Source of the DNA: a virus | Virus record (IMG/VR): IMGVR_UViG_3300008267_000027 | Coordinates: 23,175-87,174 of that record | Length of the DNA: 64,000 bases | Direction: 5' to 3' (one strand) | Notes under the pieces: generated by a model | Seen by the model: only the letters and a program-made list of their open reading frames with translations | Told to the model about the DNA's origin: nothing | Database searches by the model: none | Made by a program: the position numbers and the translations under genes | Shown: positions 42,365-58,704 of the stretch, piece by piece | Position numbering within the stretch: position 1 is the stretch's first letter | Layout of the letters: every line of letters starts with the position of its first letter

Positions 42365-42367
42365 ATA

Positions 42368-42697: not shown

Positions 42698-42699
42698 AA

Positions 42700-43551
42700 T
42701 TAAAATATATATCTAATGTTAGAAAGATCAAAGTATTCAGAATAAAGAGCTTTAAAGTCTTTTACCATCTGAGCTTTTAGTTTATGTTCATATCTAATGT
42801 TATCAGGGGCATACTGAGAATCTTTAGCTTCTTGTATATCTGGTCTCCATAACATCTGGTCTATTACAGGCTCGTTTCTCTCATGCTGAATAACATTGTA
42901 AGTTAAGAAAATACATTCACATTTTACATCTATTCCCTTACTTTTTAACTCCTCAAATAGTTTACGGTATTCATCTAACCAACCATCTGTATAAATAATA
43001 GGGCTAAAGTTAATATGAACTTCCATGCTTTGCTGAAGTCTTGGTATATGAGCTATCCTATCTGTTATACTATCTGTACCTGGTTCTAAGATGTCTGAAT
43101 ACTTCTGAGGCATTAAGCTTACTCTTATCCTATGCTTATCTTTAAATAAAAGAAAATCTTTAGGATAAAACATACTAGGATACTTGGTAGCAAATGTACT
43201 TTTTACATATGGAGTGTAATTGAAATAATTAAATACTTTTTCCCAGTTATAGTGCTTACTCATAAGAGCTACATCTGTACTGCATCCTATGTCTATAACA
43301 TACTTCTTATCATCACACTGATTAGGTACTTTAGGAAACTTTTGTTTCTCTAACCACCCTGTTATAGAATCTAATATCTGTTCTGTATTCTCATTTATAT
43401 AAACTTTGTCGTGGTTGTATCTACCTACATAACAGTAGGACTTCATACAACCCCCTAAACAACCGTAGATAAAATTGGGAGAAACTGCATCTGAGCTTCT
43501 CCCATTATCTCTAGTAGTTAGAGTTTTGGTTTTTTGTTTTATTATCTTCAT
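42700..43551 (-). CDS. Spore photoproduct lyase-like radical SAM protein
   Basis: CLGGCMKSYC cluster, DIGCSTD, FATKY, RIRVSLMP, HINFSPII resemble SplB-family motifs. Confidence 0.75.
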   Translation of the reverse strand: MKIIKQKTKTLTTRDNGRSSDAVSPNFIYGCLGGCMKSYCYVGRYNHDKVYINENTEQILDSITGWLEKQKFPKVPNQCDDKKYVIDIGCSTDVALMSKHYNWEKVFNYFNYTPYVKSTFATKYPSMFYPKDFLLFKDKHRIRVSLMPQKYSDILEPGTDSITDRIAHIPRLQQSMEVHINFSPIIYTDGWLDEYRKLFEELKSKGIDVKCECIFLTYNVIQHERNEPVIDQMLWRPDIQEAKDSQYAPDNIRYEHKLKAQMVKDFKALYSEYFDLSNIRYIF

Positions 43552-44201
43552 AATATTCCAGCATGCTCTAAAATTGTTTGTACAGTAAATTTAAGAGATA
43601 CTAGGTCTGATACATTAGCTATCTTATAGTCAAACTTCCAGTTATCAAGTCCTGTTTCTGAAGGATGTGCGTTAATAGGTTTTACACCTGGTCTATCTAT
43701 ACGAATAATAATACCATCCTTTTCTTTAATAGCTTTAGCTTCATTCTCAAATCTAGTATCTGTAATAATCCAATTAGGGTAATACCCTTCTTCATCTTCT
43801 ATATAATCAGCCATTAGTGCATTCACCCATGTATTCTCATGTAATCCATTTCTCATACACTCTGTACCAAGCTTTTGTAAAAGATCTCTCACAGTCATGG
43901 GTTGCATCCCTTCGTCACAAGGAGTCCACCATTCTGCACCTAAAACAGTTTTTTTAAAGTCTTGATTTTCAAACTCTTCTCTATCTATACCAGTAAGATG
44001 ACTAGCTATATCTTTGAGTTTACCTGCAAACTTCATTATCTCCCATCCAGATTGGTCTTGTAACCACCACTGGTGTACAGAATAATCATTGCATGCTTGC
44101 TCTATTGTAGTCTCTCCTAGCTCTGTGCAATAAAGATATTGTATAATAGTACCTACAGTGTCCTTTCCAGAACCACTATAACCTGATACTCCGATTATCA
44201 T
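43548..44201 (-). CDS. Deoxynucleoside monophosphate kinase
   Basis: GYSGSGKDT P-loop, FAGKLKD, RDLLQKLGTE, ITDTRFENE, HPSE motifs of T4 gp1-type kinases. Confidence 0.85.
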   Translation of the reverse strand: MIIGVSGYSGSGKDTVGTIIQYLYCTELGETTIEQACNDYSVHQWWLQDQSGWEIMKFAGKLKDIASHLTGIDREEFENQDFKKTVLGAEWWTPCDEGMQPMTVRDLLQKLGTECMRNGLHENTWVNALMADYIEDEEGYYPNWIITDTRFENEAKAIKEKDGIIIRIDRPGVKPINAHPSETGLDNWKFDYKIANVSDLVSLKFTVQTILEHAGIL

Positions 44202-44272
44202 TTTTATAAGAATTTTGGGTTAGAGATAAAATGCAGAGGTAAATATGTTTAAACCATCCTAATACAGTGTTC

Positions 44273-44497
44273 TTACGGATATAAGTTTCTGAGTTTTGTG
44301 TATTTTTCTTGTAGTTCAACATATTGTTTTTTCAAAGATACATATTTATCTGTAATAGTGATCAACTCTTTTTTATAATTTTCTACTTTTTTTTCCATAT
44401 CATTATAATTTTTAATAAGTAGATTATACTTTTCAATATGGGTAAACTCTCTTTTTATTTTTAATAGCACTGTGTGAGCAAATTCTTTATTTTTCAT
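44273..44497 (-). CDS. Hypothetical coiled-coil protein
   Basis: 74 aa ORF in operon orientation. Confidence 0.5.
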   Translation of the reverse strand: MKNKEFAHTVLLKIKREFTHIEKYNLLIKNYNDMEKKVENYKKELITITDKYVSLKKQYVELQEKYTKLRNLYP

Positions 44498-44518
44498 ATT
44501 GACATTTTTAATAAAAAC

Positions 44519-44544
44519 AAAGGGGAGACTTAATGCTCCCCTTT
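44519..44544 (-). terminator. Intrinsic terminator
   Basis: AAAGGGGAG-ACTTAATG-CTCCCCTTT stem; T-rich tail on the minus strand; downstream of the 44556 gene. Confidence 0.75.
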
Positions 44545-44555
44545 ATTCTGTTGGT

Positions 44556-45431
44556 TTAAAATAAGTCCAAAAGATCTGACAGTTCAGAACTGCGTTCTTT
44601 AGGAATTTCTACTTGTGTTTCTGCATCTACTTCAATCATTTCAAAAGCTTTTTCTGGACCTTCTATAAAAGGAGACTCAGCAAAAGGAATTTCTTGTGGT
44701 AAGAACTCTTCTGTACCTGTAGGTATCATACCAAAGTTTTCAGAAAAGAACTTATGAAGGTCTACATGTCTTTTCATCCAGTTCTTAGGATTGTCTTCTT
44801 TAAAGGCATGTGTAGCATAATTATATAGAGACCATGCGTTATGTTTAGGAACACCATAATCATAAGTGGGATCTTGCATCTCTCTCTTCATAATATTTAT
44901 CTGAGTGGAAGTGATTATCTCATCATGAATAAACATTCTACCCATAAGAGCAGCCATATCAGATGGATGCAAATCTATCTTTTTAAGATGTTCTCTGTCT
45001 TCTATAAGTTTTTCAAATATACCTTTAGCTCCATAAAGATATGTTCTCATGATTTCCATAGACTCAACATCTGCTGTGCCTGTGTGTTTTCTTCTATATG
45101 CACCTAGATCACCACCTACACATCCATTAGAACAAATAAAAACATGAGCACCTACAGCATACTTAAATGATACTGCTTTATTATAACTGTTTTGCCAAGC
45201 TACCATGAGTCCCATCTCTGGATCATTACCAAAGTTTAAATGATACTCTGCTTGACCAACTAGTCCGTCTGTAGAACTTCTATAATGAATTTTAGATACA
45301 GAGAATCCCATTTGATTAAGGATGGTTCTTGTATTTGTATCTACTGTTGCATGTGCTATTGGAGTATAGCTTTCTGTTCTTTCTGGAAGAGATGCTTTTT
45401 GCATTCTCTCCCAGGCTGTTAATGTTTCCAT
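44556..45431 (-). CDS. DUF932-like protein
   Basis: YTPIAH, QNSYNK, VFICSNG and WSLYNYATH motifs. Confidence 0.7.
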   Translation of the reverse strand: METLTAWERMQKASLPERTESYTPIAHATVDTNTRTILNQMGFSVSKIHYRSSTDGLVGQAEYHLNFGNDPEMGLMVAWQNSYNKAVSFKYAVGAHVFICSNGCVGGDLGAYRRKHTGTADVESMEIMRTYLYGAKGIFEKLIEDREHLKKIDLHPSDMAALMGRMFIHDEIITSTQINIMKREMQDPTYDYGVPKHNAWSLYNYATHAFKEDNPKNWMKRHVDLHKFFSENFGMIPTGTEEFLPQEIPFAESPFIEGPEKAFEMIEVDAETQVEIPKERSSELSDLLDLF

Positions 45432-45432
45432 A

Positions 45433-47364
45433 TTAAAATAATTCTAGTTGTTCAAATTTTCGTTTTACAATCTTATCTATGTTATGTATTTCCTTGTAAA
45501 TACTTTCAATATAATAGTCTTCATTGATATTATATTCCTCAAAGGTCTTATCTTCTTTTCTATTAAATATTGTTTGTAACCATCTACCAGACTCTATTTG
45601 TATTTCTCTACCATCTGTTTTATTTCTTTTTATAAGCTTTATACCATCTTTGGAAATAAAATATCTAGATGTTTTTTGCTGCTGCTTTTCTATAATATGT
45701 CCTTCTTCTACACTGACAGCATACAGTTGCCAGTCACCTTTCATTTTTACAGCACCACAATAATCATAAATGTCTCTGTTTTGTTTTAAGAAGTCTTCTG
45801 GTTTAGTACCATTAATAAAATAAGCATAGATAGCTTTAGGAATAATAAGGAAAGACTTGTTCTTATGAAGAATAGCAACCTTCTTCTTTTGAAGGTCTTC
45901 CCACTCAAATCTACCTTTACATTTAGGTTTTTTCTCAGGATCTTTAGGAATAGCAATATAATTATTTACGTCTGCTATAATCATTTTTTTATACTCATCA
46001 TGTTCTAGAGCAAGCTTGGTAAGCTTTTCCCATTCTTCACAAACCTGCATATAATCTTTCTTGTAGCAGTTTGGAATCATCATCTCTAGACCATCTGTAT
46101 TTAGCATAAGAGGTATAGCTCCAGGAATACGCTGAAGAAGCATCTCATAAAGTTTAGTTAGAAGCAATTGACCATTGATGGTAATACTCATAGTAAACTT
46201 TGGATCATACAGAAAACTATTCTCATCATTACTTAAACCATAAGTGGAGTTTAGAATAATCTTGTAAACATAGTTTTTAGGATCTGCTTTAGGTATTTTC
46301 TTTCTTTCATCAAAAAACCATTCATACTGAGTACAAAAAGCTTCTTGAGGAAAGTGTCCTGGAGATAGCTGGTTTCTGATAGCTAGATTAGGATAGAAAC
46401 TAGTAACGTCTGATGTCATTATTGTATAACCATCTAACGCTTCATATACACCACCTTCTTTAGCACCATGAATACCACCTAAACCATAATAAATATCTAT
46501 GCCTTTGTAATGAACCATATGATTAATAGAACCTTTAGTTTCTTTAATCACCTTACCCTTAAAGAACTCCAGAAGTTTTTGAAACTCTGGAGTCTCAAAG
46601 GATATATATGGAAAAATACATTCTCCCAAATAGACTACATCTCTTTCAGTTTTCATCTTCTTAACTTCATGCTTGGGGATACCAAGGTTTTTACTTAAGA
46701 AGTGTGCAAAAAGTTCTTTAGCTATTCTGGTCTCTGATGCAGAAAATAAATTGATACCATATTCTTCACTAAGAGATTTTCTAAGCTCTATTTGTTCTTT
46801 ACTTGCTTCAAAAACTTTCTTAGTAGACTGAACGTCATTAATACAATATCTAATTATAGTTTCTAATTTTTCTATTGTATCAACAGACTCAGTGTGGTGG
46901 TGAGGCATGTCTTCAACATTCTCCCAGTCCATAGAATACTGTATCCATTTAAGACTAGATCTCTTAGCTGCATTATCCCAATGATTCATTTTAAATAGAT
47001 CAATCTGATTGATGAACATTTTCCATTCAGGATAGTCAGCTCTTCTTTCTTCTTGACCATTTATAACATACTGAGCATATTTATAAATGATTTTAGCAAT
47101 TTCATCATTAGTATAGTATTCCCAATCCTTGTAGTTTTCAAGGATATAATGAGTGATTTGAGCATCAAAAGCTAAACCATTATAAGAGATATGCCATTCA
47201 TCTTTCTCTAGATTCTGCTGAATAAATTCTATGAATTCTTCAAACTGACTCTTAGGTGAGAAACGATGAATGACAAATACTCTTCTAGTTTGTTCTTTGT
47301 AATGTTCAAATACTGCAATAAAGCAGTCAGATAAGGTCTCATAGTCCATTACCCAGTGATTCAT
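45433..47364 (-). CDS. polB: Family B DNA polymerase with 3'-5' exonuclease
   Basis: Exo motifs DYE, YNGLAFD, YCINDV; polymerase motifs SDVTSFYPN, KIILNSTYG, NTDG. Confidence 0.92.
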   Translation of the reverse strand: MNHWVMDYETLSDCFIAVFEHYKEQTRRVFVIHRFSPKSQFEEFIEFIQQNLEKDEWHISYNGLAFDAQITHYILENYKDWEYYTNDEIAKIIYKYAQYVINGQEERRADYPEWKMFINQIDLFKMNHWDNAAKRSSLKWIQYSMDWENVEDMPHHHTESVDTIEKLETIIRYCINDVQSTKKVFEASKEQIELRKSLSEEYGINLFSASETRIAKELFAHFLSKNLGIPKHEVKKMKTERDVVYLGECIFPYISFETPEFQKLLEFFKGKVIKETKGSINHMVHYKGIDIYYGLGGIHGAKEGGVYEALDGYTIMTSDVTSFYPNLAIRNQLSPGHFPQEAFCTQYEWFFDERKKIPKADPKNYVYKIILNSTYGLSNDENSFLYDPKFTMSITINGQLLLTKLYEMLLQRIPGAIPLMLNTDGLEMMIPNCYKKDYMQVCEEWEKLTKLALEHDEYKKMIIADVNNYIAIPKDPEKKPKCKGRFEWEDLQKKKVAILHKNKSFLIIPKAIYAYFINGTKPEDFLKQNRDIYDYCGAVKMKGDWQLYAVSVEEGHIIEKQQQKTSRYFISKDGIKLIKRNKTDGREIQIESGRWLQTIFNRKEDKTFEEYNINEDYYIESIYKEIHNIDKIVKRKFEQLELF

Positions 47365-47753
47365 TACTCAGTTATGATTTTAGGAGTTTCTAATGTAGTA
47401 ATATATTGATCGTAGTTGAAAGTTTCTTCATTAAGAGCGTTTGCTTTAATAAATGCTCTGATTTCATCTTTCTCATGTATAAAATATTCCCAAGGAGTAG
47501 CAAGTTGTACTCTTTGCATTTTAGCTTGAGATCCATCAGATCCTTTACCAGTTTGTCCTGACGGATTACCATTCTCATCCAGTCTTTCTAACATAGTGAA
47601 GGTGTCTCTTGTAGACTTACCAAGGATAGCTAGAGCTTCTAACTTAGGCATATAGATTGCTTCGTTAAAAGGACAGTCTGCATGCAAAGGAATAAGACTA
47701 AATGTTTTGTCACCATTTGTAGCTGTGGTGTACAGCATCATTGTTTTTTCCAT
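47364..47753 (-). CDS. Hypothetical protein
   Basis: 129 aa ORF whose stop overlaps the polB start. Confidence 0.6.
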   Translation of the reverse strand: MEKTMMLYTTATNGDKTFSLIPLHADCPFNEAIYMPKLEALAILGKSTRDTFTMLERLDENGNPSGQTGKGSDGSQAKMQRVQLATPWEYFIHEKDEIRAFIKANALNEETFNYDQYITTLETPKIITE

Positions 47754-47772
47754 AAGTTTTTTTTAATTTTTA

Positions 47773-47780
47773 CAAATATA
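47773..47780 (-). promoter_or_regulatory. Bacteroidota-type -7 promoter element TATATTTG
   Basis: Matches TAnnTTTG in the short gap upstream of the 47753 gene and polB; no clear -33 TTTG seen. Confidence 0.4.
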
Positions 47781-47783
47781 GTA

Positions 47784-48341
47784 TTAATTAATGAAAGTTT
47801 CTTTACTAATATCAGGCTTGCTTAAAAGTTCTGAACCATCGATACTTTCTAAAGGAATATCTAAAGCTTCAGCATATATCTCATAATACTCTTCTGGATA
47901 TAAATATGAGTCTATAAATTTACTATACTCACTATCAGAATAATAATCAGTGATAGTTTTTTTAGCAACTTTTGTTAGTTTAGAATACTCACCATTAAGA
48001 AATACTTTCCATTCCCATTCAATATTTATTCTTTTAATATTAAAGACATACATTATTTTATCATCATCTAGAACATGTAAATCTTCAAAATATCTGTTTA
48101 AAAGTAAATATTTTTTTTCTTCTTTTCTCTGATCAGAGTTAGTCATCTTATTAAAAATACATATTAATTTTTTATCAGTAGATTGTATTACTTCTCTACC
48201 GTTATGTATCCAACCAATATAGGTTTGTTCAGGATGAAGGATAGAATCTTTAGGAATGTATAGAAAAGGATAAATAAACAGTTTAGATCTCTGAATATAC
48301 TGTTTATTTATAATTCTTTCCGTAATTATAGATTTTATCAT
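47784..48341 (-). CDS. Hypothetical protein
   Basis: 185 aa ORF in the replication operon. Confidence 0.6.
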   Translation of the reverse strand: MIKSIITERIINKQYIQRSKLFIYPFLYIPKDSILHPEQTYIGWIHNGREVIQSTDKKLICIFNKMTNSDQRKEEKKYLLLNRYFEDLHVLDDDKIMYVFNIKRINIEWEWKVFLNGEYSKLTKVAKKTITDYYSDSEYSKFIDSYLYPEEYYEIYAEALDIPLESIDGSELLSKPDISKETFIN

Positions 48342-48353
48342 ATATAATTATTT

Positions 48354-49409
48354 TTATAAGATCACCCCATCATCTTTTATAAACTGATAAGGTAGTGTAT
48401 AATCTTTGTTTGTGTAATGATAATCTGCAGTGATTAGAACAGAATGTAGTTCTATCATCCATTCTTTCATAGTATCATCACTAACTAAGAAAGAATAAAC
48501 CTGTTGATTTTTATCTACAACAATAAATCTAAACTCAACTTTATAACCATCTTTTATAAGATCAGCATGTTTGTTATTAACTAGTAATACATATATTGCT
48601 GCTTGAAGACTATACTTATAAAACTTAACAGTTTCTGGAAAATCTGCTAGGGTTTTACTAGTAGTCTTAAAATCATTAACTCTAATTGTTTTACTTATGG
48701 GATCTACCACCATGTTGTCAATAATACCCTTTAGTCCAAATTTAAACTTTTTAAGTTCCATTTCCAAAGGTATTTCATTGTAAACATCAGTTGTTTTCCA
48801 CCATTCATCCTCAGCATTTAAACATAGTAAATCAGATATTTGTTTATTAGTCTTTATCTTTTCTACTATGTCTTTACATTTTTGATACATTTCTGAATCA
48901 ACAATTTGCTTACCTCTGCTTTTAAATAAGAAATCCCAATAGATGTTTGCATCAGGTGTATATATCTTAGCAAACCTTTGTTCATCTGTTTTAAGAGACT
49001 GATGAAGATTCATATCTTTAAGTACATCTATAATTGCATTTTGATAATCAGCAAGAGTTTCTCCTCTGTATGGTTCACCTGAGCTATAAAGTTCAAGATG
49101 ATGAGCATAAACTCTATCTACAACAGTTTTAGTATTATCACTAGGCATCTTACCTGTCATTACTATAAACTGTTCATCAAACTTTTTAGGTTCTAAAAGG
49201 AGACAGTGAATCAACCTTCCTTCTGTAAGATAGGACTCATCTTTAATATCCTTTTCACCTAGAATATACTCTCTATAAAATATTTCTGGACAATACAGTA
49301 GTTTATTAAGACTACTATAAGAGAAGTAAAACTTCTTATCATAAAAGAATATCTCTTCTGATTTTATACCGTCTACAAACTGCTGAGGTGTTATTGTTGT
49401 TGTTTTCAT
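48354..49409 (-). CDS. PD-(D/E)xK exonuclease (ExoVIII/Cas4-like)
   Basis: FSYSSL, GRLIHCLLLE, KGIIDN, VNDFKT, YSLQAAIY. Confidence 0.8.
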   Translation of the reverse strand: MKTTTITPQQFVDGIKSEEIFFYDKKFYFSYSSLNKLLYCPEIFYREYILGEKDIKDESYLTEGRLIHCLLLEPKKFDEQFIVMTGKMPSDNTKTVVDRVYAHHLELYSSGEPYRGETLADYQNAIIDVLKDMNLHQSLKTDEQRFAKIYTPDANIYWDFLFKSRGKQIVDSEMYQKCKDIVEKIKTNKQISDLLCLNAEDEWWKTTDVYNEIPLEMELKKFKFGLKGIIDNMVVDPISKTIRVNDFKTTSKTLADFPETVKFYKYSLQAAIYVLLVNNKHADLIKDGYKVEFRFIVVDKNQQVYSFLVSDDTMKEWMIELHSVLITADYHYTNKDYTLPYQFIKDDGVIL

Positions 49410-49708
49410 TATTCCCAGGTTTCTTTAAGTTTTAACATTGCTGCTTCTGATAAGATGATACCAGAAACTTGATTACCACTGATGATGTTATTTTCATCAG
49501 CATACTCTTTATGCTTTTCAACAAATACATTAGCTAAACTTCTCCAGCTATGTTCATCTTCACATCTCCATTTCTTGATATCTTCAGCTCTTCTTTTACC
49601 TAAACTTTTAGCAAGGTCTTTTATATCCTTGTTAATACTTGTTTTCATAACATCTGTATATATAGACTTTATAAGTGGGGTGTCATCTGACTTTTTTTCT
49701 ATTTCCAT
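49409..49708 (-). CDS. Hypothetical protein
   Basis: 99 aa ORF coupled to the nuclease gene. Confidence 0.5.
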   Translation of the reverse strand: MEIEKKSDDTPLIKSIYTDVMKTSINKDIKDLAKSLGKRRAEDIKKWRCEDEHSWRSLANVFVEKHKEYADENNIISGNQVSGIILSEAAMLKLKETWE

Positions 49709-49851
49709 ATTCCAAAGTTTATTAATAATACTCTTATTCTAGTTGCTGTTGACTTATCTGTAGTCATAGCTTCTTCATACTCAAGAAAATCTACAAGAGC
49801 TTTCATTGTAAGCTCTACTTCCATATCATCTTGTTTTACTTCTTCTGCCAT
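49699..49851 (-). CDS. Small hypothetical protein (50 aa, not in ORF track)
   Basis: MAEEVKQDDMEVEL..FGIWK; overlaps both neighbours and fills the gap. Confidence 0.5.
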   Translation of the reverse strand: MAEEVKQDDMEVELTMKALVDFLEYEEAMTTDKSTATRIRVLLINFGIWK

Positions 49852-50039
49852 CTTTTTCTTATTTCTTTCCCAAGATCTACATCATTAGGAAACTGGGTGA
49901 TCAAATTGGTTATTGCATTCTCTGTTCTAATCTCTTTATCTTCTAGAGCATCTGCTATTCTTTTAAGTTGATCAGCTATTTCAGGAAGAGTGTGTTCTAT
50001 AAGTTTTCTACCCATTAGGGTCTCATGTAGTTCTGCCAT
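49836..50039 (-). CDS. Small hypothetical protein
   Basis: 67 aa; ETLMGRKL..LKRIADALE and FPNDVDLGKEIR motifs. Confidence 0.55.
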   Translation of the reverse strand: MAELHETLMGRKLIEHTLPEIADQLKRIADALEDKEIRTENAITNLITQFPNDVDLGKEIRKRWQKK

Positions 50040-50181
50040 CTTCTTTATAAATTTTATCTATTACTTTTTCAAATTCTCTAACATTGCTAAGTCCTATTTT
50101 TTTAATAAGGCTAGTTATGTTAATGGTGGTTTCATCAAAATAAGCTTTTAAAGCTTCCACTTCTTCATTAGTTAGTGTCAT
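50023..50181 (-). CDS. Small hypothetical protein (52 aa, not in ORF track)
   Basis: MTLTNEEVEALK..DGRTT; overlaps both neighbours and fills the gap. Confidence 0.5.
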   Translation of the reverse strand: MTLTNEEVEALKAYFDETTINITSLIKKIGLSNVREFEKVIDKIYKEDGRTT

Positions 50182-50356
50182 CTCTTAAATGTTTAAATTG
50201 TTTCCAGTCTTCTTCTGGTAAATAATTAATTAGATTTTCTATAGGTAGGAACTTAAGGAGTTCTTCTATAGCTTCCACTTCACCACAGTGAATATCTAAC
50301 TCTATTTGTTTATACACTGTTTCTATAAGGTCCTGTTTACTTTTTGGACTTTTCAT
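50168..50356 (-). CDS. Small hypothetical protein
   Basis: Likely start MKSPK overlapping the HNH gene end. Confidence 0.5.
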   Translation of the reverse strand: MKSPKSKQDLIETVYKQIELDIHCGEVEAIEELLKFLPIENLINYLPEEDWKQFKHLRDDTN

Positions 50357-50735
50357 CTTGTGTTTTTTTATTATGGCAAACATTACATAGCACTTGAAGG
50401 TTATCAATTTCGCAAAAAAGTCTTTCAACAAAACCAGGAAGATCTTTAGCACTTCTTAGTGTACCAGCAGGAATAATGTGGTCTACATTAATTTCTTTAT
50501 CAGGAAACCAGTTCTTACATTGATTACACTGATACTCCCACTGCTGTCTTTTATTAGGACCCTTATACTTTCTCTTAGCAGCTTGTTTAGCTTGACCTAT
50601 AGGTTTCCACCATCTAGACTTTTGTCTAAGAGCAGATCTAATAAAACTCCAGAAAGCTGCGTCAGTCATAGTGCCAGCATTTCTAGTCTTAGGTGCTGCA
50701 TTCTTTCTAGGTTTTGATGACTTCTTTTTTGCCAT
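50337..50735 (-). CDS. HNH endonuclease
   Basis: CNQC..VDHIIP..NLQVLCNVCHNKKT. Confidence 0.85.
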   Translation of the reverse strand: MAKKKSSKPRKNAAPKTRNAGTMTDAAFWSFIRSALRQKSRWWKPIGQAKQAAKRKYKGPNKRQQWEYQCNQCKNWFPDKEINVDHIIPAGTLRSAKDLPGFVERLFCEIDNLQVLCNVCHNKKTQDEKSKK

Positions 50736-51709
50736 TAGTTTAGTTTTTTATTAATCAGAGGTATAAGAACACTTAGTGCTTTAGACTGACCATGTGCTTT
50801 TACAGCATCAGCTATGTCTTTTTCCATAGAAAAATACACAAAATCTAAATCATATGTGTCTTTATAAGTCTTCATTGCTTTTATACCTGCCTCATCATTA
50901 TCAAAGATAGTGATTACTTTTTTATACCTTTCTTTTAAATCTTCTATAGTTTCTTTCTTAATAAGAGTGTTTTCTGAGTCTGGTGCAATAACGTCTATTT
51001 TCAAACCTACAGATTTTAATGCAAGAGCATCTTTAAGACTAGAACATATAACTAAGAAGTCATGACCTTCTAGTTGATCAGATCCTTGTAGATAACTACC
51101 AACCTTTATAAACTTATGTTCTTTAACTTTAGGTTGATAAATCTTATATAGAGATCCATCTTTTCTAAAATATCCATACAAAAACAAACCTTTAATTTCT
51201 AGACTCTTTAGTTCACCATCTTCTTCTTTTTCCATCTTATAAGACTCAAGTGGTTTAACATTGTATTTCTCTAATAAACTAGATGGGATACTAAACTGCT
51301 GCCAAAACTTTTTATCTTGAGCACACCATGGTCTTACAACGGTAGATGTAACTTTATATCTACTATGTACTTTAAACTCTGTAAGCTTATGTTCTGTACC
51401 ATTATTTAAAAGCACAAATCTATTATAGTCTTCTACAATTCTTTTAGAAGAGAATTTAAAGTCTTCATTAAATATCTCCTGTACTAATTTTACTGCGCTG
51501 CCACCTTTACCTGTTGAAAAATCTTTAAAGAAATATTTACCATTATAAACAAAGATGCACATGCTAGGCGTCTTGTCTAATGGATTAAATACAGATTTGA
51601 TTTTAACATCTTGACCAGAAAGCTTTTCAGATAGGTTACAATAGTTTTGAAATATCCATGTCTCAGGAACATCTTTAACAGACTGTATAAGATATTTAGT
51701 GGATATCAT
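50735..51709 (-). CDS. DNA primase (TOPRIM)
   Basis: DKTPS..FKDFSTGKGG N-terminal domain; SLKDAL, FDNDEAG, KDIAD TOPRIM motifs. Confidence 0.8.
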   Translation of the reverse strand: MISTKYLIQSVKDVPETWIFQNYCNLSEKLSGQDVKIKSVFNPLDKTPSMCIFVYNGKYFFKDFSTGKGGSAVKLVQEIFNEDFKFSSKRIVEDYNRFVLLNNGTEHKLTEFKVHSRYKVTSTVVRPWCAQDKKFWQQFSIPSSLLEKYNVKPLESYKMEKEEDGELKSLEIKGLFLYGYFRKDGSLYKIYQPKVKEHKFIKVGSYLQGSDQLEGHDFLVICSSLKDALALKSVGLKIDVIAPDSENTLIKKETIEDLKERYKKVITIFDNDEAGIKAMKTYKDTYDLDFVYFSMEKDIADAVKAHGQSKALSVLIPLINKKLN

Positions 51710-51720
51710 AAAATAAAAAT

Positions 51721-51746
51721 AGGGGATGATATTTAAACCATCCCCT
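51721..51746 (-). terminator. Intrinsic terminator
   Basis: AGGGGATG-ATATTTAAAC-CATCCCCT stem; T-rich tail on the minus strand; follows the SSB-like gene. Confidence 0.7.
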
Positions 51747-51764
51747 TATTTAGTAATTAATAGA

Positions 51765-52460
51765 TTACAGATTAAAACCTGATGGTGTCCAACCTTCTGC
51801 TTTAGCTGGAGTACTATCCCATCCACCAGCTTCTACTTTAGTTTCAGACTCTGTTTTATCTTCTACATGAACACTGTAATTAAAAGTAGCCACTCTAGAT
51901 GGTGTGGTTCCTGCTAACTCAAAGTTCTTAAAGTTTTTATCATACTTTGGTAGATGTAAACTAAAGTCTTTATTACCATCATCTTTTAGATATGCAGAAC
52001 CTCCAACACACCAGTAGTAGAACTGATCACCAGATAGAATCTTACCAGCTTGCTTAACAAAGTTCTCAATAGTATCAGCTTCAATACCATTTAATTCATC
52101 TCTTTTACCATTAAGGTTAGCAATCTCAACCAAAGATCTTAAGATTTCCATATCTCTATTTCTTTCTTTACCTGCTTTAGTTTGTCCATTTCTATAAGGA
52201 TAAGCTGAGAATCTCACTTTACCCACTTGACCTTTAGCACGTCCTTTATTTGGATTGTCCTTGTCATACATAAAACCTTCAAAGTCAGGACCTTGATCCT
52301 CACCTTCTAGATGCAATACTAAATAAAAAGCTTCAGCATCACTCTTTAGTGGTTGTAAAGAAATGTCTAAGATTTTAGCTGTAATGTTACCTGGTTTAAT
52401 AGTTTTAGGAGTTTTACCAGAACCTCCTGCGCTTAGTTGGATGTCTTTTGTACTTAACAT
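51765..52460 (-). CDS. Putative single-stranded DNA-binding protein
   Basis: IKPGN.TAKI N-terminus, low-complexity tail ending in FNL, directly downstream of the AAA ATPase; start chosen at MLSTK. Confidence 0.5.
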   Translation of the reverse strand: MLSTKDIQLSAGGSGKTPKTIKPGNITAKILDISLQPLKSDAEAFYLVLHLEGEDQGPDFEGFMYDKDNPNKGRAKGQVGKVRFSAYPYRNGQTKAGKERNRDMEILRSLVEIANLNGKRDELNGIEADTIENFVKQAGKILSGDQFYYWCVGGSAYLKDDGNKDFSLHLPKYDKNFKNFELAGTTPSRVATFNYSVHVEDKTESETKVEAGGWDSTPAKAEGWTPSGFNL

Positions 52461-52485
52461 GTTTTGATAATTAAAATGTGAATTA

Positions 52486-53169
52486 TTAGTTTTCGTATGA
52501 TATAATAGCATCTCTTACTATTTGTAAGTCATTAGGAATCTCAAATCCTGTAAACATACCTCTTGGAGATTTACATGTATTCTCACCATTATTTTGGGTT
52601 TCAAACACATATCTCATTTCTCCATCTTTATTCTTTTTGACTTTACCAAAGAGAACAATAGAATATAAACCTTCTAATGTAAGCTTATCATCTACAAGTT
52701 TGCCTATAGTTTTAGCTTTCACTTTACGTTTACCTTCTAGATCTGTTGATTCTTCTGCATGAGTGAGATAGAAAACCATAAGGTCATCTCTCATCATTAT
52801 AGGAAGTTTTGCAATGTGAGCTAGTGCAGCACCCATCTGAGTAAATTTGTCAAAGCCTTTTTCTGTAGCTCTGCCAAAATACTCAAATGCTGACATGTAT
52901 TGAAAATCATCAATTACTACATTTTTGATTTCTTTACGCTCATTGTTTATAATTTTAAGAACACTCTCTATATCCTTAGGACTACTTACATTAGCACAAT
53001 TACCTTGTTTAGTAATTAGATCAAATGCAGGATACTTAGTCTTCCATCCTTTAAATGGAAGAGGTTTGTTAGCTACATTGATAATGAAACTTTCTTTAGG
53101 ATTTAAAGACTCAATAGAGGTTGATTTACCACAACCTGATTCTGCAATAATTAATACTGACTGTGCCAT
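52486..53169 (-). CDS. AAA-family ATPase (Sak4/AAA_24-like recombination protein)
   Basis: AESGCGKST Walker A, VVIDDFQY Walker B, KSPRGMF..IPNDL. Confidence 0.8.
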   Translation of the reverse strand: MAQSVLIIAESGCGKSTSIESLNPKESFIINVANKPLPFKGWKTKYPAFDLITKQGNCANVSSPKDIESVLKIINNERKEIKNVVIDDFQYMSAFEYFGRATEKGFDKFTQMGAALAHIAKLPIMMRDDLMVFYLTHAEESTDLEGKRKVKAKTIGKLVDDKLTLEGLYSIVLFGKVKKNKDGEMRYVFETQNNGENTCKSPRGMFTGFEIPNDLQIVRDAIISYEN

Positions 53170-53757
53170 TTATAAATTGTTTATTAGATTGTTTAACCAT
53201 TGTTTATTACTTACAGGTTTCTTTAAAAGAAGAGCTGCTAAATCTCTAAGTGTCATCTCAGAGTAGTGTACATCCTCTTGCTCTTTAAAGCTTTCTGTAG
53301 GTTGTTTTTTGTTAAGAATAGTGTCAATACTAACTTTTGGTTTTTTAGGTACAGTCATTTGAACTACTCCTGGTGTTGGTTGACCAGCTACTAGTTCAAG
53401 TTCTGAAACAGGAACTAAATAAGTTTCTGAGTTTTTGTTTCTACTAGGGTCTGCAGGAATAAGCTCATATTCACCATCCTTGTAGTAAGGATTGTGTCTA
53501 AGCTTGTACAATACAGGTTGATCAAACAATGGATAGTTTTCACCATTAGTGAGCTCCATATAGATACCGTCTACATGGTTCATTTCTGATGGAAACATAC
53601 TTACCACCATGTCTTCTCTATGTTTAGGAACATAGGCAAACTTGATGTTAAATGCTGGATCAATCAATCCTAGTTTTTTAAAGTTCTGTTCGTTTCTTTG
53701 CTTGAGAGCACTGAGAGCTACTCCTCTGTCAAGCTTTGTTCGTACTTGTGTCGACAT
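53170..53757 (-). CDS. Hypothetical protein
   Basis: 195 aa ORF between DnaB and AAA genes. Confidence 0.6.
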   Translation of the reverse strand: MSTQVRTKLDRGVALSALKQRNEQNFKKLGLIDPAFNIKFAYVPKHREDMVVSMFPSEMNHVDGIYMELTNGENYPLFDQPVLYKLRHNPYYKDGEYELIPADPSRNKNSETYLVPVSELELVAGQPTPGVVQMTVPKKPKVSIDTILNKKQPTESFKEQEDVHYSEMTLRDLAALLLKKPVSNKQWLNNLINNL

Positions 53758-53775
53758 CGTATGTTGTTTTAATTG

Positions 53776-54711
53776 TTAACTAACTGTTTTAGGTGGTGGG
53801 TCTGTTTCATAAAGTTTCATATGTTCAAAGTCTTCTTCAAAGAAACTAAACTGACCAGCTTGACCATTTCTATTTTTAAGATAGTGTACTACAATATGTT
53901 TAGGTTGCACTTGATATTTCTCAGGACCATACACTCTAAGGTTATACTTAGAAGGTCTGTTAATACCTAATACAATGTCAGCATGTTGTAGCAATGCGTC
54001 ACCCCCATAAATATCAGAGTCAAAGATGTAATTACCATAAGTACCTGGTTTTTGTCTTTCTACTGACTCCACTTCTCTATTAAGCTGAGTGAGTACAATA
54101 AACATAACAGGATGCTTCTTAAGATGGGTCATCATCTTTGCTAGATTGTGTAATGTATCAAACTGATCTTTCTCTGATGAAGATTTAGCAACCAACACTG
54201 AGTGATCTAACGTAACAATAAAAGGCATATTATACCTACCTAGACATTCTTCAATCTTAGATTGAATTTCTTTTACAGTCATAGGTTGATCAATAGTCCA
54301 AATATCTTTACTATTATTTTCTTGTGTATACTTAATCGCAGCAGTTAAATCATCATCTGATAATTCACTACTACAACTAGATAGTTGCTTCATGCTTTTC
54401 TTAATAGCTCCTGAGATTTCTCTCATTGCTATAGTACGAGCAATCATCTCAAACTGAAAATCTAAAACACCAAACTTTTGATCAGGATTTAACTTAAATG
54501 CTTCTCTTGTGATAAGATTAGTAAACATAGTTTTACCTGAACCAGGTCTGCCTCCAATGACAATTATGTTGTTCCATTCTAACCCATCCATAGTCACTTG
54601 ATTAACCTTAGACCATGGAGTTTTTATACTTTTTATTTCACCAGTCTTTCTTTTTGTCATGTAGTCCAAAGCTGACTGGTAAGCTTGACTAATGTGAATC
54701 AGATTTGCCAT
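53776..54711 (-). CDS. dnaB: DnaB-like replicative helicase (motor domain only)
   Basis: GGRPGSGKT, FEM, LDH, LTQLNR, LKNRNG motifs; start chosen at MANL. Confidence 0.88.
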   Translation of the reverse strand: MANLIHISQAYQSALDYMTKRKTGEIKSIKTPWSKVNQVTMDGLEWNNIIVIGGRPGSGKTMFTNLITREAFKLNPDQKFGVLDFQFEMIARTIAMREISGAIKKSMKQLSSCSSELSDDDLTAAIKYTQENNSKDIWTIDQPMTVKEIQSKIEECLGRYNMPFIVTLDHSVLVAKSSSEKDQFDTLHNLAKMMTHLKKHPVMFIVLTQLNREVESVERQKPGTYGNYIFDSDIYGGDALLQHADIVLGINRPSKYNLRVYGPEKYQVQPKHIVVHYLKNRNGQAGQFSFFEEDFEHMKLYETDPPPKTVS

Positions 54712-54712
54712 A

Positions 54713-54901
54713 CTATTTATTATCAATCTTAACAATAGAGCAGGTAAAGATATACATTTTTGCTGACAATAACAACAAAAATTCTAAAATAAAATACCTA
54801 AATACAGATATTTCTATTAGTAATGTATTCACTATAAACCAGGTGACTATTGAAAAACAAATAGATAGTATTAATCTGTGTACCCAATTAGGTATTCTCA
54901 T
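54713..54901 (-). CDS. Small membrane protein
   Basis: 62 aa with two hydrophobic stretches. Confidence 0.5.
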   Translation of the reverse strand: MRIPNWVHRLILSICFSIVTWFIVNTLLIEISVFRYFILEFLLLLSAKMYIFTCSIVKIDNK

Positions 54902-54909
54902 AATAAATA

Positions 54910-55230
54910 CTACTCATAGCTGTCTACGAATTTATTAAGCAGATTTCTCTCCTCTTCTGTTAAAAAATCCTCACTTTCATAGTGAGTTGGTAATTGTAAC
55001 CATTTCTCATCTAACAAATCTCCATCATGCATTTTAACATAAACATGATAGCGATAACCATCTGTCTCTGTAACTTCACTAGAGCACTCTAAGCTTTCGT
55101 CTTGTTCAAGAGCTTTCTCTATAACCATTTTAAGTTTCTCTAGTCCTTCTCTATTGCCTGTGATAAAGATATCATCAGACCAATACTTAGAACCAAAAAC
55201 TTTTAAAATAGAGGGTTTTTGTGTATCCAT
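54910..55230 (-). CDS. Hypothetical protein
   Basis: 106 aa; ITGNREGLEKL..DGYRY. Confidence 0.55.
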   Translation of the reverse strand: MDTQKPSILKVFGSKYWSDDIFITGNREGLEKLKMVIEKALEQDESLECSSEVTETDGYRYHVYVKMHDGDLLDEKWLQLPTHYESEDFLTEEERNLLNKFVDSYE

Positions 55231-55235
55231 AAAAA

Positions 55236-55832
55236 TTAAATTGCACTTGTATAACCACCATCAGGTATTTCTGGTGAGCTGTCTCCATCTAATATCATAT
55301 CGCAATAAGTTGCTAATGTGGATGTAGATGTTTTATCTAAACTACTTTTAAATATAAAATAACCAGATGTCTTCATAAACTTATAACCTTCTGGTTCATA
55401 TTGAGAAACATACTTCTTAGTAGCTTTAAGTATAGTATCCCAATCATATTCATAGTTATTAAAAAACCATATGAATCTTTTTTCTAATTCTTTTATAGGT
55501 GATCTAGAAGGAGAACCTGAAGGTAAGTTGCCTTTAGGAAAAAGTTCTCTATACGCTTCTATATTCTTTTTGTCTAGGTCTGTTAAACCAGTTTTCTTTT
55601 TAATTTTATCGTCATCTACTATTTCATAAGTGCTTTCAAGTTTTACTAAGACATCTTCACCTTTCTTTGTAATTTCTAAGTCATCATTTAAAAAACCATC
55701 TGCTTGTAAAAACCTAGTTTCAAATACTTGATTTATGACATGAGGTTTTTTTCTATTTTTTATACAGTATAAAAGATAGAGTCCATTAGGGGAGATGTTA
55801 AAATCTACCATTTTATTAAATAACTTTATCAT
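55236..55832 (-). CDS. Putative replication initiator / helicase loader
   Basis: Winged-helix-like N-terminus (EITKKG) and YRELFP..ILKATKKY..FMK...YFI C-terminus; upstream of dnaB. Confidence 0.45.
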   Translation of the reverse strand: MIKLFNKMVDFNISPNGLYLLYCIKNRKKPHVINQVFETRFLQADGFLNDDLEITKKGEDVLVKLESTYEIVDDDKIKKKTGLTDLDKKNIEAYRELFPKGNLPSGSPSRSPIKELEKRFIWFFNNYEYDWDTILKATKKYVSQYEPEGYKFMKTSGYFIFKSSLDKTSTSTLATYCDMILDGDSSPEIPDGGYTSAI

Positions 55833-56301
55833 ATTTTTCTTTTAGTTTTTCAATAATATTAACATAAATACACAAATAATTTTGATCATATTTAATCAAA
55901 TCTTCTGCTTTCTTTTCTAAGTGCATTATTGTAGAATGATCTCTATTTAGATAGTTCCCTATTGCAGCAAGTTTAAAACAGAAAGCTCTTGCTATTTTGG
56001 TAAATATAGACCTAGCATCTACAAGTTCTCTCTTTCTACAAGCATTTTTTAAGTCGCCATCTTTTAGTTCATAAGGGTAATTTTGCATAATGATTTGCTC
56101 AATATCTTGTAGATTGACTACTGGATAGTCTTCATCAATATTAATCTTTTCTGTTCCATTAAAGATTTTATGTATATCTGGGTTGCTTAATTGAATTGTA
56201 ATTTTTAAACCAGTTTTATACTTAAAGTCCTTAACAAAGTCTTTTATTAGCTTTTCAGCTAATATGTTTCTGTACTCTAAAGCTGTCATTGTTTTCTTCA
56301 T
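55816..56301 (-). CDS. DnaA C-terminal-type HTH DNA-binding protein
   Basis: RKRELVDARSIF..IGNYLNRDHSTIMH matches the DnaA domain IV signature. Confidence 0.75.
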   Translation of the reverse strand: MKKTMTALEYRNILAEKLIKDFVKDFKYKTGLKITIQLSNPDIHKIFNGTEKINIDEDYPVVNLQDIEQIIMQNYPYELKDGDLKNACRKRELVDARSIFTKIARAFCFKLAAIGNYLNRDHSTIMHLEKKAEDLIKYDQNYLCIYVNIIEKLKEKYDKVI

Positions 56302-56314
56302 AAAATTTAAAGTT

Positions 56315-56347
56315 GGTTATTTATTTGTTTTTTAGTATATTATATTG
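56315..56347 (+). promoter_or_regulatory. Putative phage promoter GGT-N16-AGTATATTATATTG
   Basis: Start of the plus-strand block; shares AGTATATTATATT with 15706 and GGT-N16 spacing with 8952. Confidence 0.5.
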
Positions 56348-56357
56348 TAGATAGTTC

Positions 56358-56481
56358 ATAGTAGAACCTTATAGTGTGCCAGGTTATTAACACCTTTTTA
56401 GCAACTATATTTGATCAGCCTGCCTCTCTCAGGGGTTGTCTTTAAGACAGATCAATAACCTGGTGACACTGGTTCTATTAT
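56358..56481 (+). ncRNA. Candidate structured RNA (long interrupted stem with branched apex)
   Basis: Nested pairings 56358-68/56471-81, 56373-77/56466-70, 56378-88/56454-64, 56413-16/56450-53; mismatches are G-U compatible on the + strand. Confidence 0.55.
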
Positions 56482-56514
56482 ATATTGTATAATTTATAAA
56501 CATGTTTATGTAAG

Positions 56515-56823
56515 ATGAGCGGAACTCCTAACCCAAAAAACTCTATGGCTAATACCATAAAGATATATCTTTTTCCAGCATTAGTTACAATTTTAGCAAC
56601 ACTTATTTGGAGAGATGTTACAGAAATGAGATCTGATATAAAGGCTCTTTTAGCTCAGTCTAACATAGATAAGACTGATATTCAAAATCTTAAAAGAGAT
56701 GTTGATAAGTTAGAACAAGCTGTTTTTCATAAAAAAACAATAGCTCAAAATAGTTTACCCTGGTATATGAATGTTTATTTTAAACCTGAGGAAGAATATG
56801 ATGTTAAGAAGTATTTAAATTAA
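56515..56823 (+). CDS. Single-TM coiled-coil protein (holin/antiholin-like)
   Basis: YLFPALVTILATLIW hydrophobic helix then heptad pattern. Confidence 0.5.
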   Translation: MSGTPNPKNSMANTIKIYLFPALVTILATLIWRDVTEMRSDIKALLAQSNIDKTDIQNLKRDVDKLEQAVFHKKTIAQNSLPWYMNVYFKPEEEYDVKKYLN

Positions 56824-56829
56824 TTAATT

Positions 56830-58128
56830 ATGGTAGATGGTCAAACAGTAAGAATATTAGAAAGCATCAACAAACAGCTATGTTGTATTAAAAACAACCA
56901 AGCTGATGGTTTGGATGTTACACTTGCACCTTCTACAGCACAAGATAGCTTTGGAAGACTAAGAGTTTCTGAACCTTTTACACTATTTGACTCAAGCCAT
57001 AGATTTGATGATAACGGACTTTGGGTTACATCCACTGCTACAGATGGAGCAGCTGTATTCAATGCTGATCAAGGACTTGTAGATTTAAATGTTACAGCAG
57101 CTTCTGGTTCTTCAGTTACTAGAGAAACAATTAAAGTGTTTGCTTACCAACCAGGTAAGTCACTCCTTGTTATGAGTACATTTGTAATGTCTACTGCTAA
57201 AACAGGACTTACACAACGTATTGGTTATTATGGAGCTGATAATGGTTTTTATTTAGAGCAAGCTGGGTCAGCAATATCTTTTGTAAAAAGAAGTATTGTA
57301 ACTGGATCTATAGTAAACACTCCTGTTTTACAAGCTGATTGGAATGGAGATAAGTTAGATGGTAATGGTCCTTCTGGTATTACTTTGGATCTAACAAAAG
57401 CTCAGATTCTTTGGATGGATTTAGAATGGTTAGGTGTAGGTTCTGTACGTATGGGGTTTGTAATAGATGGTCAGTTTATACTGTGTCATACATTTCAACA
57501 TGCTAATATATTAGCTTCAACATATATTACAACAGCTTCATTACCATTACGTTATGAGATATTTAATACAGCTGGTACAACTGGGAATAGCACATTAAAA
57601 CAAATCTGTTCCACTGTAATCTCAGAAGGAGGATATGAACTTAGAGGAGCACAATATGCAGTAGGTACTCCAATTGCTTCTCCTATAACATATACTGTTG
57701 CCAGTACTTATATACCAATAGTAGGTTTCAGGCTTAAATCAACAAGACTTGATGCCATTGTAATTCTTACTGCAGTGTCTATATTAGGACTTGGTAATGG
57801 TAAAAATTACTCTTGGAGAGTTGTTCAAGGTGCAACAATTAGTGGAGGTGGTGCATGGGCAACTACAGGAACTGATTCGTCTGTTGAATACAAGTTAGAT
57901 GGAACATCTGCTACAGGTGGTAGAATTCTTGCACAAGGATATGTAAACTCATCTAATCAGGGATCTCCTAGTATTAATATTCTTAAAGAAGCATTATTTG
58001 CAAATCAGTTAGAAAGAAATAGTTTCACTGGTACACCTTATGAGTTAGTATTAGAAGTAGCTATAAGTGATGCAAGTGGTACAAATGGAGTACTTGCTTC
58101 TGTAGATTGGGAAGAAATAAGTAGATAA
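56830..58128 (+). CDS. Virion structural protein, beta-sandwich/lectin-like
   Basis: DSFGRLRVSEPFTLFD, YQPGKS, EWLGVGSVR, LPLRYEI motifs recurrent in phage structural proteins. Confidence 0.6.
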   Translation: MVDGQTVRILESINKQLCCIKNNQADGLDVTLAPSTAQDSFGRLRVSEPFTLFDSSHRFDDNGLWVTSTATDGAAVFNADQGLVDLNVTAASGSSVTRETIKVFAYQPGKSLLVMSTFVMSTAKTGLTQRIGYYGADNGFYLEQAGSAISFVKRSIVTGSIVNTPVLQADWNGDKLDGNGPSGITLDLTKAQILWMDLEWLGVGSVRMGFVIDGQFILCHTFQHANILASTYITTASLPLRYEIFNTAGTTGNSTLKQICSTVISEGGYELRGAQYAVGTPIASPITYTVASTYIPIVGFRLKSTRLDAIVILTAVSILGLGNGKNYSWRVVQGATISGGGAWATTGTDSSVEYKLDGTSATGGRILAQGYVNSSNQGSPSINILKEALFANQLERNSFTGTPYELVLEVAISDASGTNGVLASVDWEEISR

Positions 58129-58140
58129 AATAAATATAAA

Positions 58141-58704
58141 ATGAATCCTACACCTACTGATATTTTTGGAAGACTTAGATGGTTAACTGATAGAATCAAA
58201 AGAATTTTTGGTAATATCACTTTATTAGATCAAAGAGTTACTGCTCTTGAAAATGGAGGCGGTGGAGGAGGAGACCCTCTTCCCCCATCTGTTACACAAA
58301 TTATAGATGGTGATGGTATATCTATAACACCAGCAGAAGGAACAGGCACAGTTACAATATCAACTGTAAATATTCCTTCAGAAGATTCTTTATCATTATT
58401 ATCTGGAATAGAACCTGTTAATCTACCTGTAGGATCAGAAGGATTAGGGGGGTTTTATGCTATAGATACTACAGATGATGGTACAAATATAGGTGGTGTA
58501 ATAGAGTTCCCTGACCCAGCATTATCTGTTGGTAAAGTTATCACCATTATGAACAGAAGCACTTATAATGCTCCTATTAGCAATAATGGATATATGCCTA
58601 TAGACGTTGATGGTAGTCCTGTATTATATGTACCATCAAGCAGTGTTTATGAATTTATATCAACAGCAAATGATTGGTATACAACTTTTACAAGAACCAT
58701 TTAA
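58141..58704 (+). CDS. Putative fibre/decoration protein
   Basis: Coiled N-terminus (RVTALE), Gly linker, VTQIIDGDGISI..GTVTI fibre-like motif. Confidence 0.5.
   Translation: MNPTPTDIFGRLRWLTDRIKRIFGNITLLDQRVTALENGGGGGGDPLPPSVTQIIDGDGISITPAEGTGTVTISTVNIPSEDSLSLLSGIEPVNLPVGSEGLGGFYAIDTTDDGTNIGGVIEFPDPALSVGKVITIMNRSTYNAPISNNGYMPIDVDGSPVLYVPSSSVYEFISTANDWYTTFTRTI

Follow-up and report, generated by a model that had tools for sequence, protein, structure and literature searches.

Phage messenger RNAs (mRNAs) can carry leader and processing hairpins that are cut by RNase III, as in the lambda N-leader and the T7 R1.1-type sites, and long operons can be headed by cis-acting processive antitermination RNAs such as HK022 putL/putR, Bacillus EAR, and conAn2. 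At the DNA level, the promoter hairpins of the N4 virion RNA polymerase consist of a 5- to 7-bp stem and a 3-nucleotide (nt) loop. The crAss-like phages are among the most abundant known, yet the early, middle, and late timing of their genes is largely unexplained, and of their signals only the host-type middle promoters of phage phi14:2 have been mapped. Excerpts of the phi14:2 study describe a tripartite host-type promoter in front of the middle genes that was mapped by primer extension and is used by the sigma-70 holoenzyme in vitro, with similar motifs in other crAss-like phages ahead of both middle and late genes (bioRxiv 10.1101/2020.03.07.982082). Here, we describe a rod-shaped structured element at 56358-56481 (+ strand) of a 64,000-nt stretch (the window), which is the final 64 kb of the 87,174-bp IMG/VR virus record IMGVR_UViG_3300008267_000027, rated 72% complete. 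The rod lies in a 213-nt gap that separates two divergent genes, 55816-56301 (-), encoding a DnaA C-terminal-domain (DnaA_C) protein at the head of a leftward replication block, and 56515-56823 (+), encoding a 102-amino-acid (aa) protein at the head of a rightward block. On the strength of sequence analysis, we propose with a probability of about one half that the rod is a cis-acting structured 5' leader RNA of the rightward transcript, representing a new family.

Folded as + strand RNA, the segment 56345-56495 has a minimum free energy (MFE) of -45.3 kcal/mol, compared with -30.2 +/- 3.5 kcal/mol for 200 dinucleotide shuffles (z -4.29), with 0/200 shuffles as good. This comparison had been proposed in the initial annotation, which saw here a candidate phage noncoding RNA; the nested stems, bulge, and apical hairpins that it described are all present, at or within 1-2 nt of their described positions. 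On the sense strand the promoter motif (56335-56349) comes first, followed by the rod (56358-56481) and the ATG at 56515, with a start site that we place by inference at the foot of the rod. The helices, bulge, and apex listed below were taken from the MFE fold, and for the rod core also from its homologue in a related contig, L084.

56324..56349, + strand: rightward host-type promoter, with a -33-like TTTG (56324-56327) and the conserved motif GTATATTATATTGTA (56335-56349).
56351..56355 with 56484-56488, + strand: optional outermost 5-bp helix, present in the MFE fold, where it extends the rod to 138 nt; weakly supported, with one pair broken in L084.
56358..56481, + strand: rod core of 124 nt, made up of P1, a 15-bp helix, a 24-nt bulge, and a three-way apex.
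56358-56368 (ATAGTAGAACC) with 56471-56481 (GGTTCTATTAT), + strand: P1, an 11-bp helix.
56373-56387 with 56455-56470, + strand: 15-bp helix with one bulged G, covering the AGTGT/ACACT and GCCAGGTTATT/AATAACCTGGT stems.
56388..56411, + strand: one-sided 24-nt bulge, overlapping TATATTTG (56406-56413); the opposite strand is fully paired.
56412..56454, + strand: three-way apex, with the closing helix TGATC/GATCA (56412-56416/56450-56454), two hairpins, and a pyrimidine loop containing CCUC.
56482..56514, + strand: AT-rich leader behind the rod, with a second copy of TATATTGTA and a three-codon mini-open reading frame (ORF), ATG TTT ATG TAA (56502-56513); 23/34 positions are identical to L084.

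In total, the rod comprises 42-47 pairs over 124-138 nt, with a 4-nt bulge between the 11-bp P1 and the 15-bp helix. The two G-U stem pairs that had been singled out on the + strand are found among six in the fold, and TATATTTG was likewise correctly located within the bulge. For the first apical hairpin, the MFE fold gives GCCTCT-CTC-AGGGGT and the initial annotation CCTG-CCTCTCT-CAGG, both of which are possible. The rod is single-copy in the 87-kb record and has a GC content of 0.36, with 2-kb windows of the phage at about 0.29-0.35. A search of Rfam, 6S families included, was another of the suggested checks; a cmscan of 55800-57000 at E <= 10 returned three chance-level matches and neither 6S nor any other family. 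The rod belongs to no catalogued RNA family. Two smaller features were also observed. A 10-nt exact direct repeat, TTTTAGCAAC, occurs in the rod bulge (56396-56405) and in the 102-aa coding sequence (56591-56600) and may be due to chance, and tiny start-stop or three-codon ORFs (ATG TAA, ATG TAG, ATG TTT ATG TAA) recur by eye before the 102-aa gene, in the leaders of L083, L084, L087, L099, and L103.

The action of selection was assessed in a comparison of two sequences, the window and L084 (contig IMGVR_UViG_3300008267_002708, the same as L110), which carries the same rod at the same spacing from the promoter. Of the 135 aligned columns of the element, 114 are identical. Differences affect 8/94 paired and 14/48 unpaired columns, and across codons 1-76 of the adjacent gene 25/76 third positions and 8/23 fourfold sites differ. 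Paired columns are more conserved than both unpaired columns (Fisher p 0.0025) and third positions (p 8e-5), and no difference is seen between unpaired columns and third positions (p 0.70). Judged by this contrast, the rod structure is evidently kept by selection, which bears out the earlier proposal of a selected structure on the + strand. The covariation that had been sought among relatives was found in part, since among seven changed pairs of these two sequences we observe one double change (A-U to G-C) and three one-sided changes kept via a + strand G-U, and also three broken pairs. The broken pairs are one in the outermost helix, one that closes a loop, and one G-U inside P1, where L084 has an alignment gap. 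The apex stems are identical in L084, with changes confined to the loops, and the bulge is the least conserved part of the rod.

The structure also shows a strand preference. In the three rods available (the window, L084, and a second rod type introduced below), the + strand always folds better than the - strand (-45.3/-39.3, -43.3/-31.9, and -49.4/-45.0 kcal/mol, respectively, for + and - strands; z -3.66 for the - strand of the window), and the + strand folds contain 6, 6, and 4 G-U pairs. The stability of the + strand together with its G-U pairs disfavors the role of a symmetric duplex or cruciform and indicates a single-strand function of the + strand, as either RNA or DNA.

The rod starts directly behind a promoter, as the initial annotation had supposed, and this promoter is near-identical to P070 of phi14:2 (TATATTATATTTGTA), which contains one T more than the motif here. 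Upstream sequences of phi14:2 g070, g075, g108, g110, g092, and g093 all contain TAnnTTTG, which we take to match the Bacteroidota -7 consensus, followed by TA (TG in g075). The promoter ahead of the rod thus belongs to the class validated in phi14:2. Each of the 23 relatives examined, of which 21 are loci that encode a homologue of the 102-aa protein and the others L103/L144, has GTATATTATATTGTA at the junction. Further copies precede + strand genes at genome positions 7409, 38902, and 79689, and a variant form stands ahead of 6405; within the window alone, two matches are found against 0.72 expected, which is not significant by itself. Since the start codons of phi14:2 lie only 5-8 nt past the box, we predict a start site here at about 56351-56354; this is the foot of the rod, whose core begins within about 10 nt. 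We also observe that motif copies outside the window (G000:C1:7340-7408 and 6282-6404) have short hairpins between motif and gene, and that upstream of the copy near 6360 the sequence holds a G/C hairpin with a T run, resembling a terminator.

Relatives of the phage display three types of junction. The window and L084 carry the type A rod, and a covariance model of this type (R1) matches only the window and the L084 contig, leaving type B undetected. The type B rod of L103/L144 (IMGVR_UViG_3300008267_000612) has an unrelated interior but the same plan, and folds with a z of -4.79 (0/200 shuffles as good). By eye, it shares with type A the base stem AGAACC/GGTTCT (AGAACCTT...ACTGGTTCT), the TGATYARCCTGC stretch at the junction, and a CCUC-containing loop. 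A second rod type with an unrelated interior in the same place and on the same base stem supports the leader reading. In the third type, represented by 16 other distinct relatives, a roughly 39-nt segment occupies the rod slot and usually forms a short hairpin. RNAalifold recovered no consensus structure from these 16 short-hairpin leaders, whose 3' arms are shifted by indels, and covariation is not claimed there.

The extents of homology indicate how these types have been exchanged. Between the window and L084, homology runs from 56333 to 56745, while that with L144 stops at 56351 and resumes at 56572. With L083/L085, it covers the promoter and begins again from 56474 or 56479, such that relative to these loci the rod segment 56350-56473 stands in place of the 39-nt segment. 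In addition, contigs of four runs (X1-X4) from one aquatic study match window positions 55900-56351 at about 93% (30-31 differences in 439-452 nt), and past 56351 their letters match the start of the type B rod, which means that the other rod type here adjoins a left arm nearly identical to that of the window. The breakpoints (L084 from 56333; L144 and runs X1-X4 to 56351) make the promoter a mosaic joint, and the left and right arms are therefore reassorted exactly at this promoter (window 56333-56351). To judge from the same alignments, the rod and the start of the 102-aa gene travel as one unit.

Relatives were sought via the 432-aa protein encoded by the second rightward gene (80 loci) and via the 102-aa and DnaA_C proteins. 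The 80 loci were rejected as syntenic relatives, as the 432-aa protein is promiscuous and occurs in cyanophages and in phage HMO-2011; blastn and nhmmer searches of the gap against them gave only short AT-rich or promoter matches. By blastn, none of 50,697 phage records matched the junction. Four rod-internal, promoter-independent patterns run against 2.9 million viral contigs gave 0, 0, 0, and then 1 match, the L084 contig. A promoter-plus-stem pattern recovered 6 stretches from viral contigs, with rods only in the L084 and L103 contigs, and 30 stretches from metagenome contigs, none of which shows a rod by eye, the pattern being coupled to the promoter and silent on other sites. For the DnaA_C protein, a scan of genome contigs yielded 65 distant cellular-type matches and none that were close, and tblastn against phages matched 21 Flavobacterium phage records, with 40% identity across 43% of the query.

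From the fold, its conservation, and its position, we infer transcription of the rod and a function in the RNA as follows. Host RNA polymerase would start at the conserved promoter (56335-56349), and the first roughly 130 nt of the RNA would pair up into a long, irregular double-stranded rod capped by a three-way apex, followed by the AT-rich leader and then the 102-aa gene. We prefer a model in which this 5'-terminal structure sets the stability or processing of the operon mRNA in cis. The base-paired 5' end may hinder 5'-end-dependent decay, or the stacked duplex of about 26 bp may be a substrate for a double-strand-specific RNase, e.g., RNase III. A weaker alternative is polymerase pausing or attenuation, which would time the virion and lysis genes. 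A structured leader for the lysis operon was among the options of the initial annotation; the leader fits best of these, while the lysis label is loosely supported, with a CHAP-domain hydrolase 3 kb downstream (26.2 bits, cut-off 26) and a virion structural protein encoded by gene 2. With a selected RNA-type structure where the rightward transcript begins, the virion and lysis arm would have a concrete element for its control.

Several observations weigh against a leader RNA. None of the listed runs is recorded as RNA, and the contigs of runs X1-X4 are without cover at 56370-56463 and have slight cover at 56464-56557, which says nothing on expression. The covariation is based on very few events (two type A sequences, and one complete and one partial type B sequence). 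G-T pairs are also tolerated in single-stranded DNA (ssDNA), and the leftward early genes use the + strand as their template, so that the strand bias is no proof of RNA. No terminator-like tail was called at the rod base, where a consensus scan called only the apical hairpin 56422-56436; the 12 nt past GGTTC contain 7-8 T in the three rods (by eye), near the AT-rich background. No strong internal terminators were found in the next 7.5 kb, and an antisense search of bulge and apex against 60-nt gene-start regions produced no target that stands out (best z -1.3). Furthermore, 16/16 distinct rod-less relatives carry an invariant CAAAnnTA in the same slot, the sole invariant letters beyond the promoter. 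Its reverse complement, TAnnTTTG, is a -7-type box aimed at the DnaA_C gene, and the slot therefore also serves a leftward promoter function. Finally, on the DnaA_C tree of 23 rows the rod label needs 1 change, the three rod-bearing loci lying on one side of a branch with support 97/95, whereas on the 102-aa tree it needs 3 changes. Only 1/500 label shuffles did as well on the DnaA_C tree, but with three labelled rows and with kin sharing labels the result is no more than suggestive. As a separate observation, the divergent promoters of the rod-less relatives (L083-L102) appear to overlap back-to-back within about 30 bp. A literature search, mostly below full-text depth, found no leader RNA described at the head of a crAss-like late arm.

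The evidence on strand and lineage is also relevant to explanations at the DNA level. The rod could be a + strand ssDNA hairpin that serves the early block, either as a structure-dependent promoter of the virion polymerase, following the N4 paradigm, or as part of a replication origin by the DnaA_C gene, including a transcription-primed origin. We consider this conceivable but doubtful. It would suit the position of the rod, 57 nt upstream of the first replication-block gene at the strand and GC-skew switch, as well as the + strand DNA folds (z -4.6, -2.9, and -5.7 in the three rods) and the tracking of the DnaA_C lineage by rod presence. A perfect leftward TAnnTTTG is lacking in the gap of the window and of L144, while L084 has one near the leftward ATG. 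The excerpted phi14:2 study describes a replicative module that is early, transcribed by the virion polymerase, and devoid of a detectable promoter motif, and a virion polymerase that was assayed on denatured DNA (bioRxiv 10.1101/2020.03.07.982082). A published prediction places an origin of the prototype crAssphage at the strand switch. However, the GC-skew switch is here the switch in gene direction and so cannot locate an origin, and a 124-nt multi-branched structure is far over the size of the N4 hairpins and would extrude poorly from duplex DNA. The G-U-preserving changes are most typical of RNA. Moreover, type A is found with two very different DnaA_C proteins, and a DnaA_C gene that is about 93% identical at the DNA level sits with type B; such mixed combinations show no specific pairing of protein and rod other than the base stem that is shared. 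Improbable in our view is the wider proposal that the rod and the short hairpin of the relatives are alike a + strand DNA signal in the opened injected genome, read by the crAss-type virion polymerase or by the replication machinery. If true, this would be the first candidate for a structure-dependent early promoter or origin signal for the crAss-type virion polymerase family, whose promoters are still undescribed. We likewise give little credence to a double-stranded palindrome that acts as a protein-binding site or supercoil-sensitive cruciform and would control the two back-to-back promoters, as an early/late switch. The slot between divergent promoters, the inverted repeat around the leftward -7-type box in rod-less relatives, and the AGAACC/GGTTCT base stem common to both rod types would be expected of such a palindrome, but its arms are not fixed and change in a compensating manner, its half-sites would be about 100 bp apart in duplex DNA, and the six + strand G-T pairs correspond to A-C mismatches on the other strand, which disfavors a symmetric cruciform or dimer site.

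Two further explanations were raised in the initial annotation. That the rod is a small mobile or inserted palindromic element, similar to a miniature inverted-repeat transposable element, in the promoter region is very improbable. The replacement of the 39-nt segment of L083/L085 by the rod (56350-56473), the inverted ends common to the two rod types, and the flanking 9-nt direct repeat TATATTGTA all recall an insertion. The repeat is indeed present at 56341 and 56481, but it has 4 copies in the window against 2.47 expected, a number reached by 25/100 shuffles, and its second copy lies in a leader homologous to that of rod-less relatives (from 56474) and is thus ancestral. In L084 it reads TATATTTTA, in type B (L144) it is absent, and it is not adjacent to the left arm. 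The rod is moreover single-copy, the four pattern scans of viral contigs gave only the L084 contig, and its stems are under purifying selection. Insertion with a target-site duplication was accordingly rejected, the repeat being at chance level, ancestral, and imperfect or absent in relatives. An invertible promoter (with an interior of only about 59 bp in an element that is palindromic as a whole) and an integron attC-like site (whose consensus the end motifs do not fit) were each dropped without a dedicated test. We also see little prospect for a free trans-acting small RNA of about 130-140 nt that would start at the same promoter and be ended or cut past the rod, in which a 6S-like polymerase decoy is included. 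Such an RNA would have its own promoter, a compact stable fold, and, in all three rods, U/A-rich sequence behind it; it is countered by the missing Rfam match, by the lack of a called terminator at the rod end and of an antisense target at gene starts, and by a downstream gene that is without a separate conserved promoter and has only a 12/15 look-alike (by eye) in this phage. The 6S-like promoter mimic specifically, which we regard as a remote prospect, shares with 6S RNA a rod-like shape and an unpaired region that in this one phage contains the -7-like TATATTTG. Its bulge is, however, one-sided and poorly conserved, with no bubble unpaired on both strands, and the box is lost elsewhere, reading TATTATTG in L084, the only close homologue, and being absent from type B. 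None of the Rfam 6S families, which include Flavobacteria and Bacteroidales types, matches at E <= 10, and the rod of about 125 nt is shorter than 6S RNA, which is roughly 180 nt. A hammerhead or other ribozyme was dropped in view of the Rfam result and of the lack of core motifs by eye, with no dedicated test. A cis-acting leader RNA remains our preferred reading.

The genomic setting is that of a marine phage with a crAss-like genome layout, in which 5174-aa and 2196-aa ORFs on the + strand accompany a leftward and a rightward block. The leftward block spans 40831-56301 and includes a DnaB-like helicase at 53776-54735. The rightward block runs from 56515 to the contig end, which is also the window end, and then from the contig start to window position 40819, on the same strand. 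The two genes that flank the junction are as follows.

55816..56301, - strand: first gene of the leftward replication block, encoding a 161-aa DnaA C-terminal-domain (helix-turn-helix) protein (Pfam PF08299 Bac_DnaA_C, 39.9 bits, cut-off 31.5).
56515..56823, + strand: first gene of the rightward block, encoding a 102-aa protein with an N-terminal hydrophobic helix and no family assigned.

The 102-aa protein matched no PHROG family, and its Pfam matches are all far under the curated cut-offs; homologues were found at 21 loci (L083-L102 and L008). Gene 2 of the rightward operon (window 56830-58128) encodes the 432-aa virion structural protein (phrog_1645). This protein is 58-63% identical to proteins of Synechococcus T4-like cyanophage and Puniceispirillum phage HMO-2011, and from such matches its gene looks widely shared among marine phages. 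It is apparently absent from the L084 contig, where homology skips from window 56745 to 58700. No transfer RNA or transfer-messenger RNA was found in the window. In addition, a terminator-like hairpin with a T run (56541-56562, - strand) lies within the first codons of the 102-aa gene and is directed at the junction. In an intergenic gap upstream of the window (G000:C1:20275-20438), we observe a perfect TGTGGATAA beside a G/C-rich hairpin with a T run; we take TGTGGATAA to be the DnaA-box consensus, which is of interest since the phage encodes a DnaA C-domain protein.

Taken as a whole, the strand-switch junction looks like a compact regulatory hub, because two rod forms are interchangeable in near-identical phages, a short hairpin can replace them, and the slot is common with the leftward promoter. 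Among described systems, the N4 hairpin promoters resemble this arrangement in that a template-strand hairpin lies upstream of early genes and the phage injects its own RNA polymerase. They are, however, tiny compared with the 42-47 pairs seen here, and the crAss-type polymerase is of a different family. Phage phi14:2 offers the same promoter class and, according to the excerpted study, also makes unexplained noncoding RNAs, but these are described there as longer, abundant, and belonging to the early, replicative arm (g004-g006) (bioRxiv 10.1101/2020.03.07.982082). Its strand switch (L212 47753-48110) differs as well, as the mapped promoter P110 lies 5 nt before the ATG and leaves no room for a leader rod; in the rest of this gap, roughly 300 nt, there are G/C-rich inverted repeats. 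With the put, EAR, and conAn2 elements, the rod has in common that a folded RNA would come first behind the promoter, at the head of a very long same-strand block. It differs in that it has no Rfam match, no strong terminators are found in the next 7.5 kb, and a single rod takes the place of the paired put stem-loops. The RNase III leader hairpins bear no sequence relation to the rod, which has a three-way apex and belongs to a phage of a Bacteroidota-type host; membership is not claimable. The likeness lies in a long, irregular hairpin, interrupted by an internal loop or bulge, near a phage 5' end and in more than 20 bp of stacked duplex. By this comparison, the rod would work most like the structured leader and processing hairpins of phage mRNAs, and possibly like leaders of the put/EAR type.

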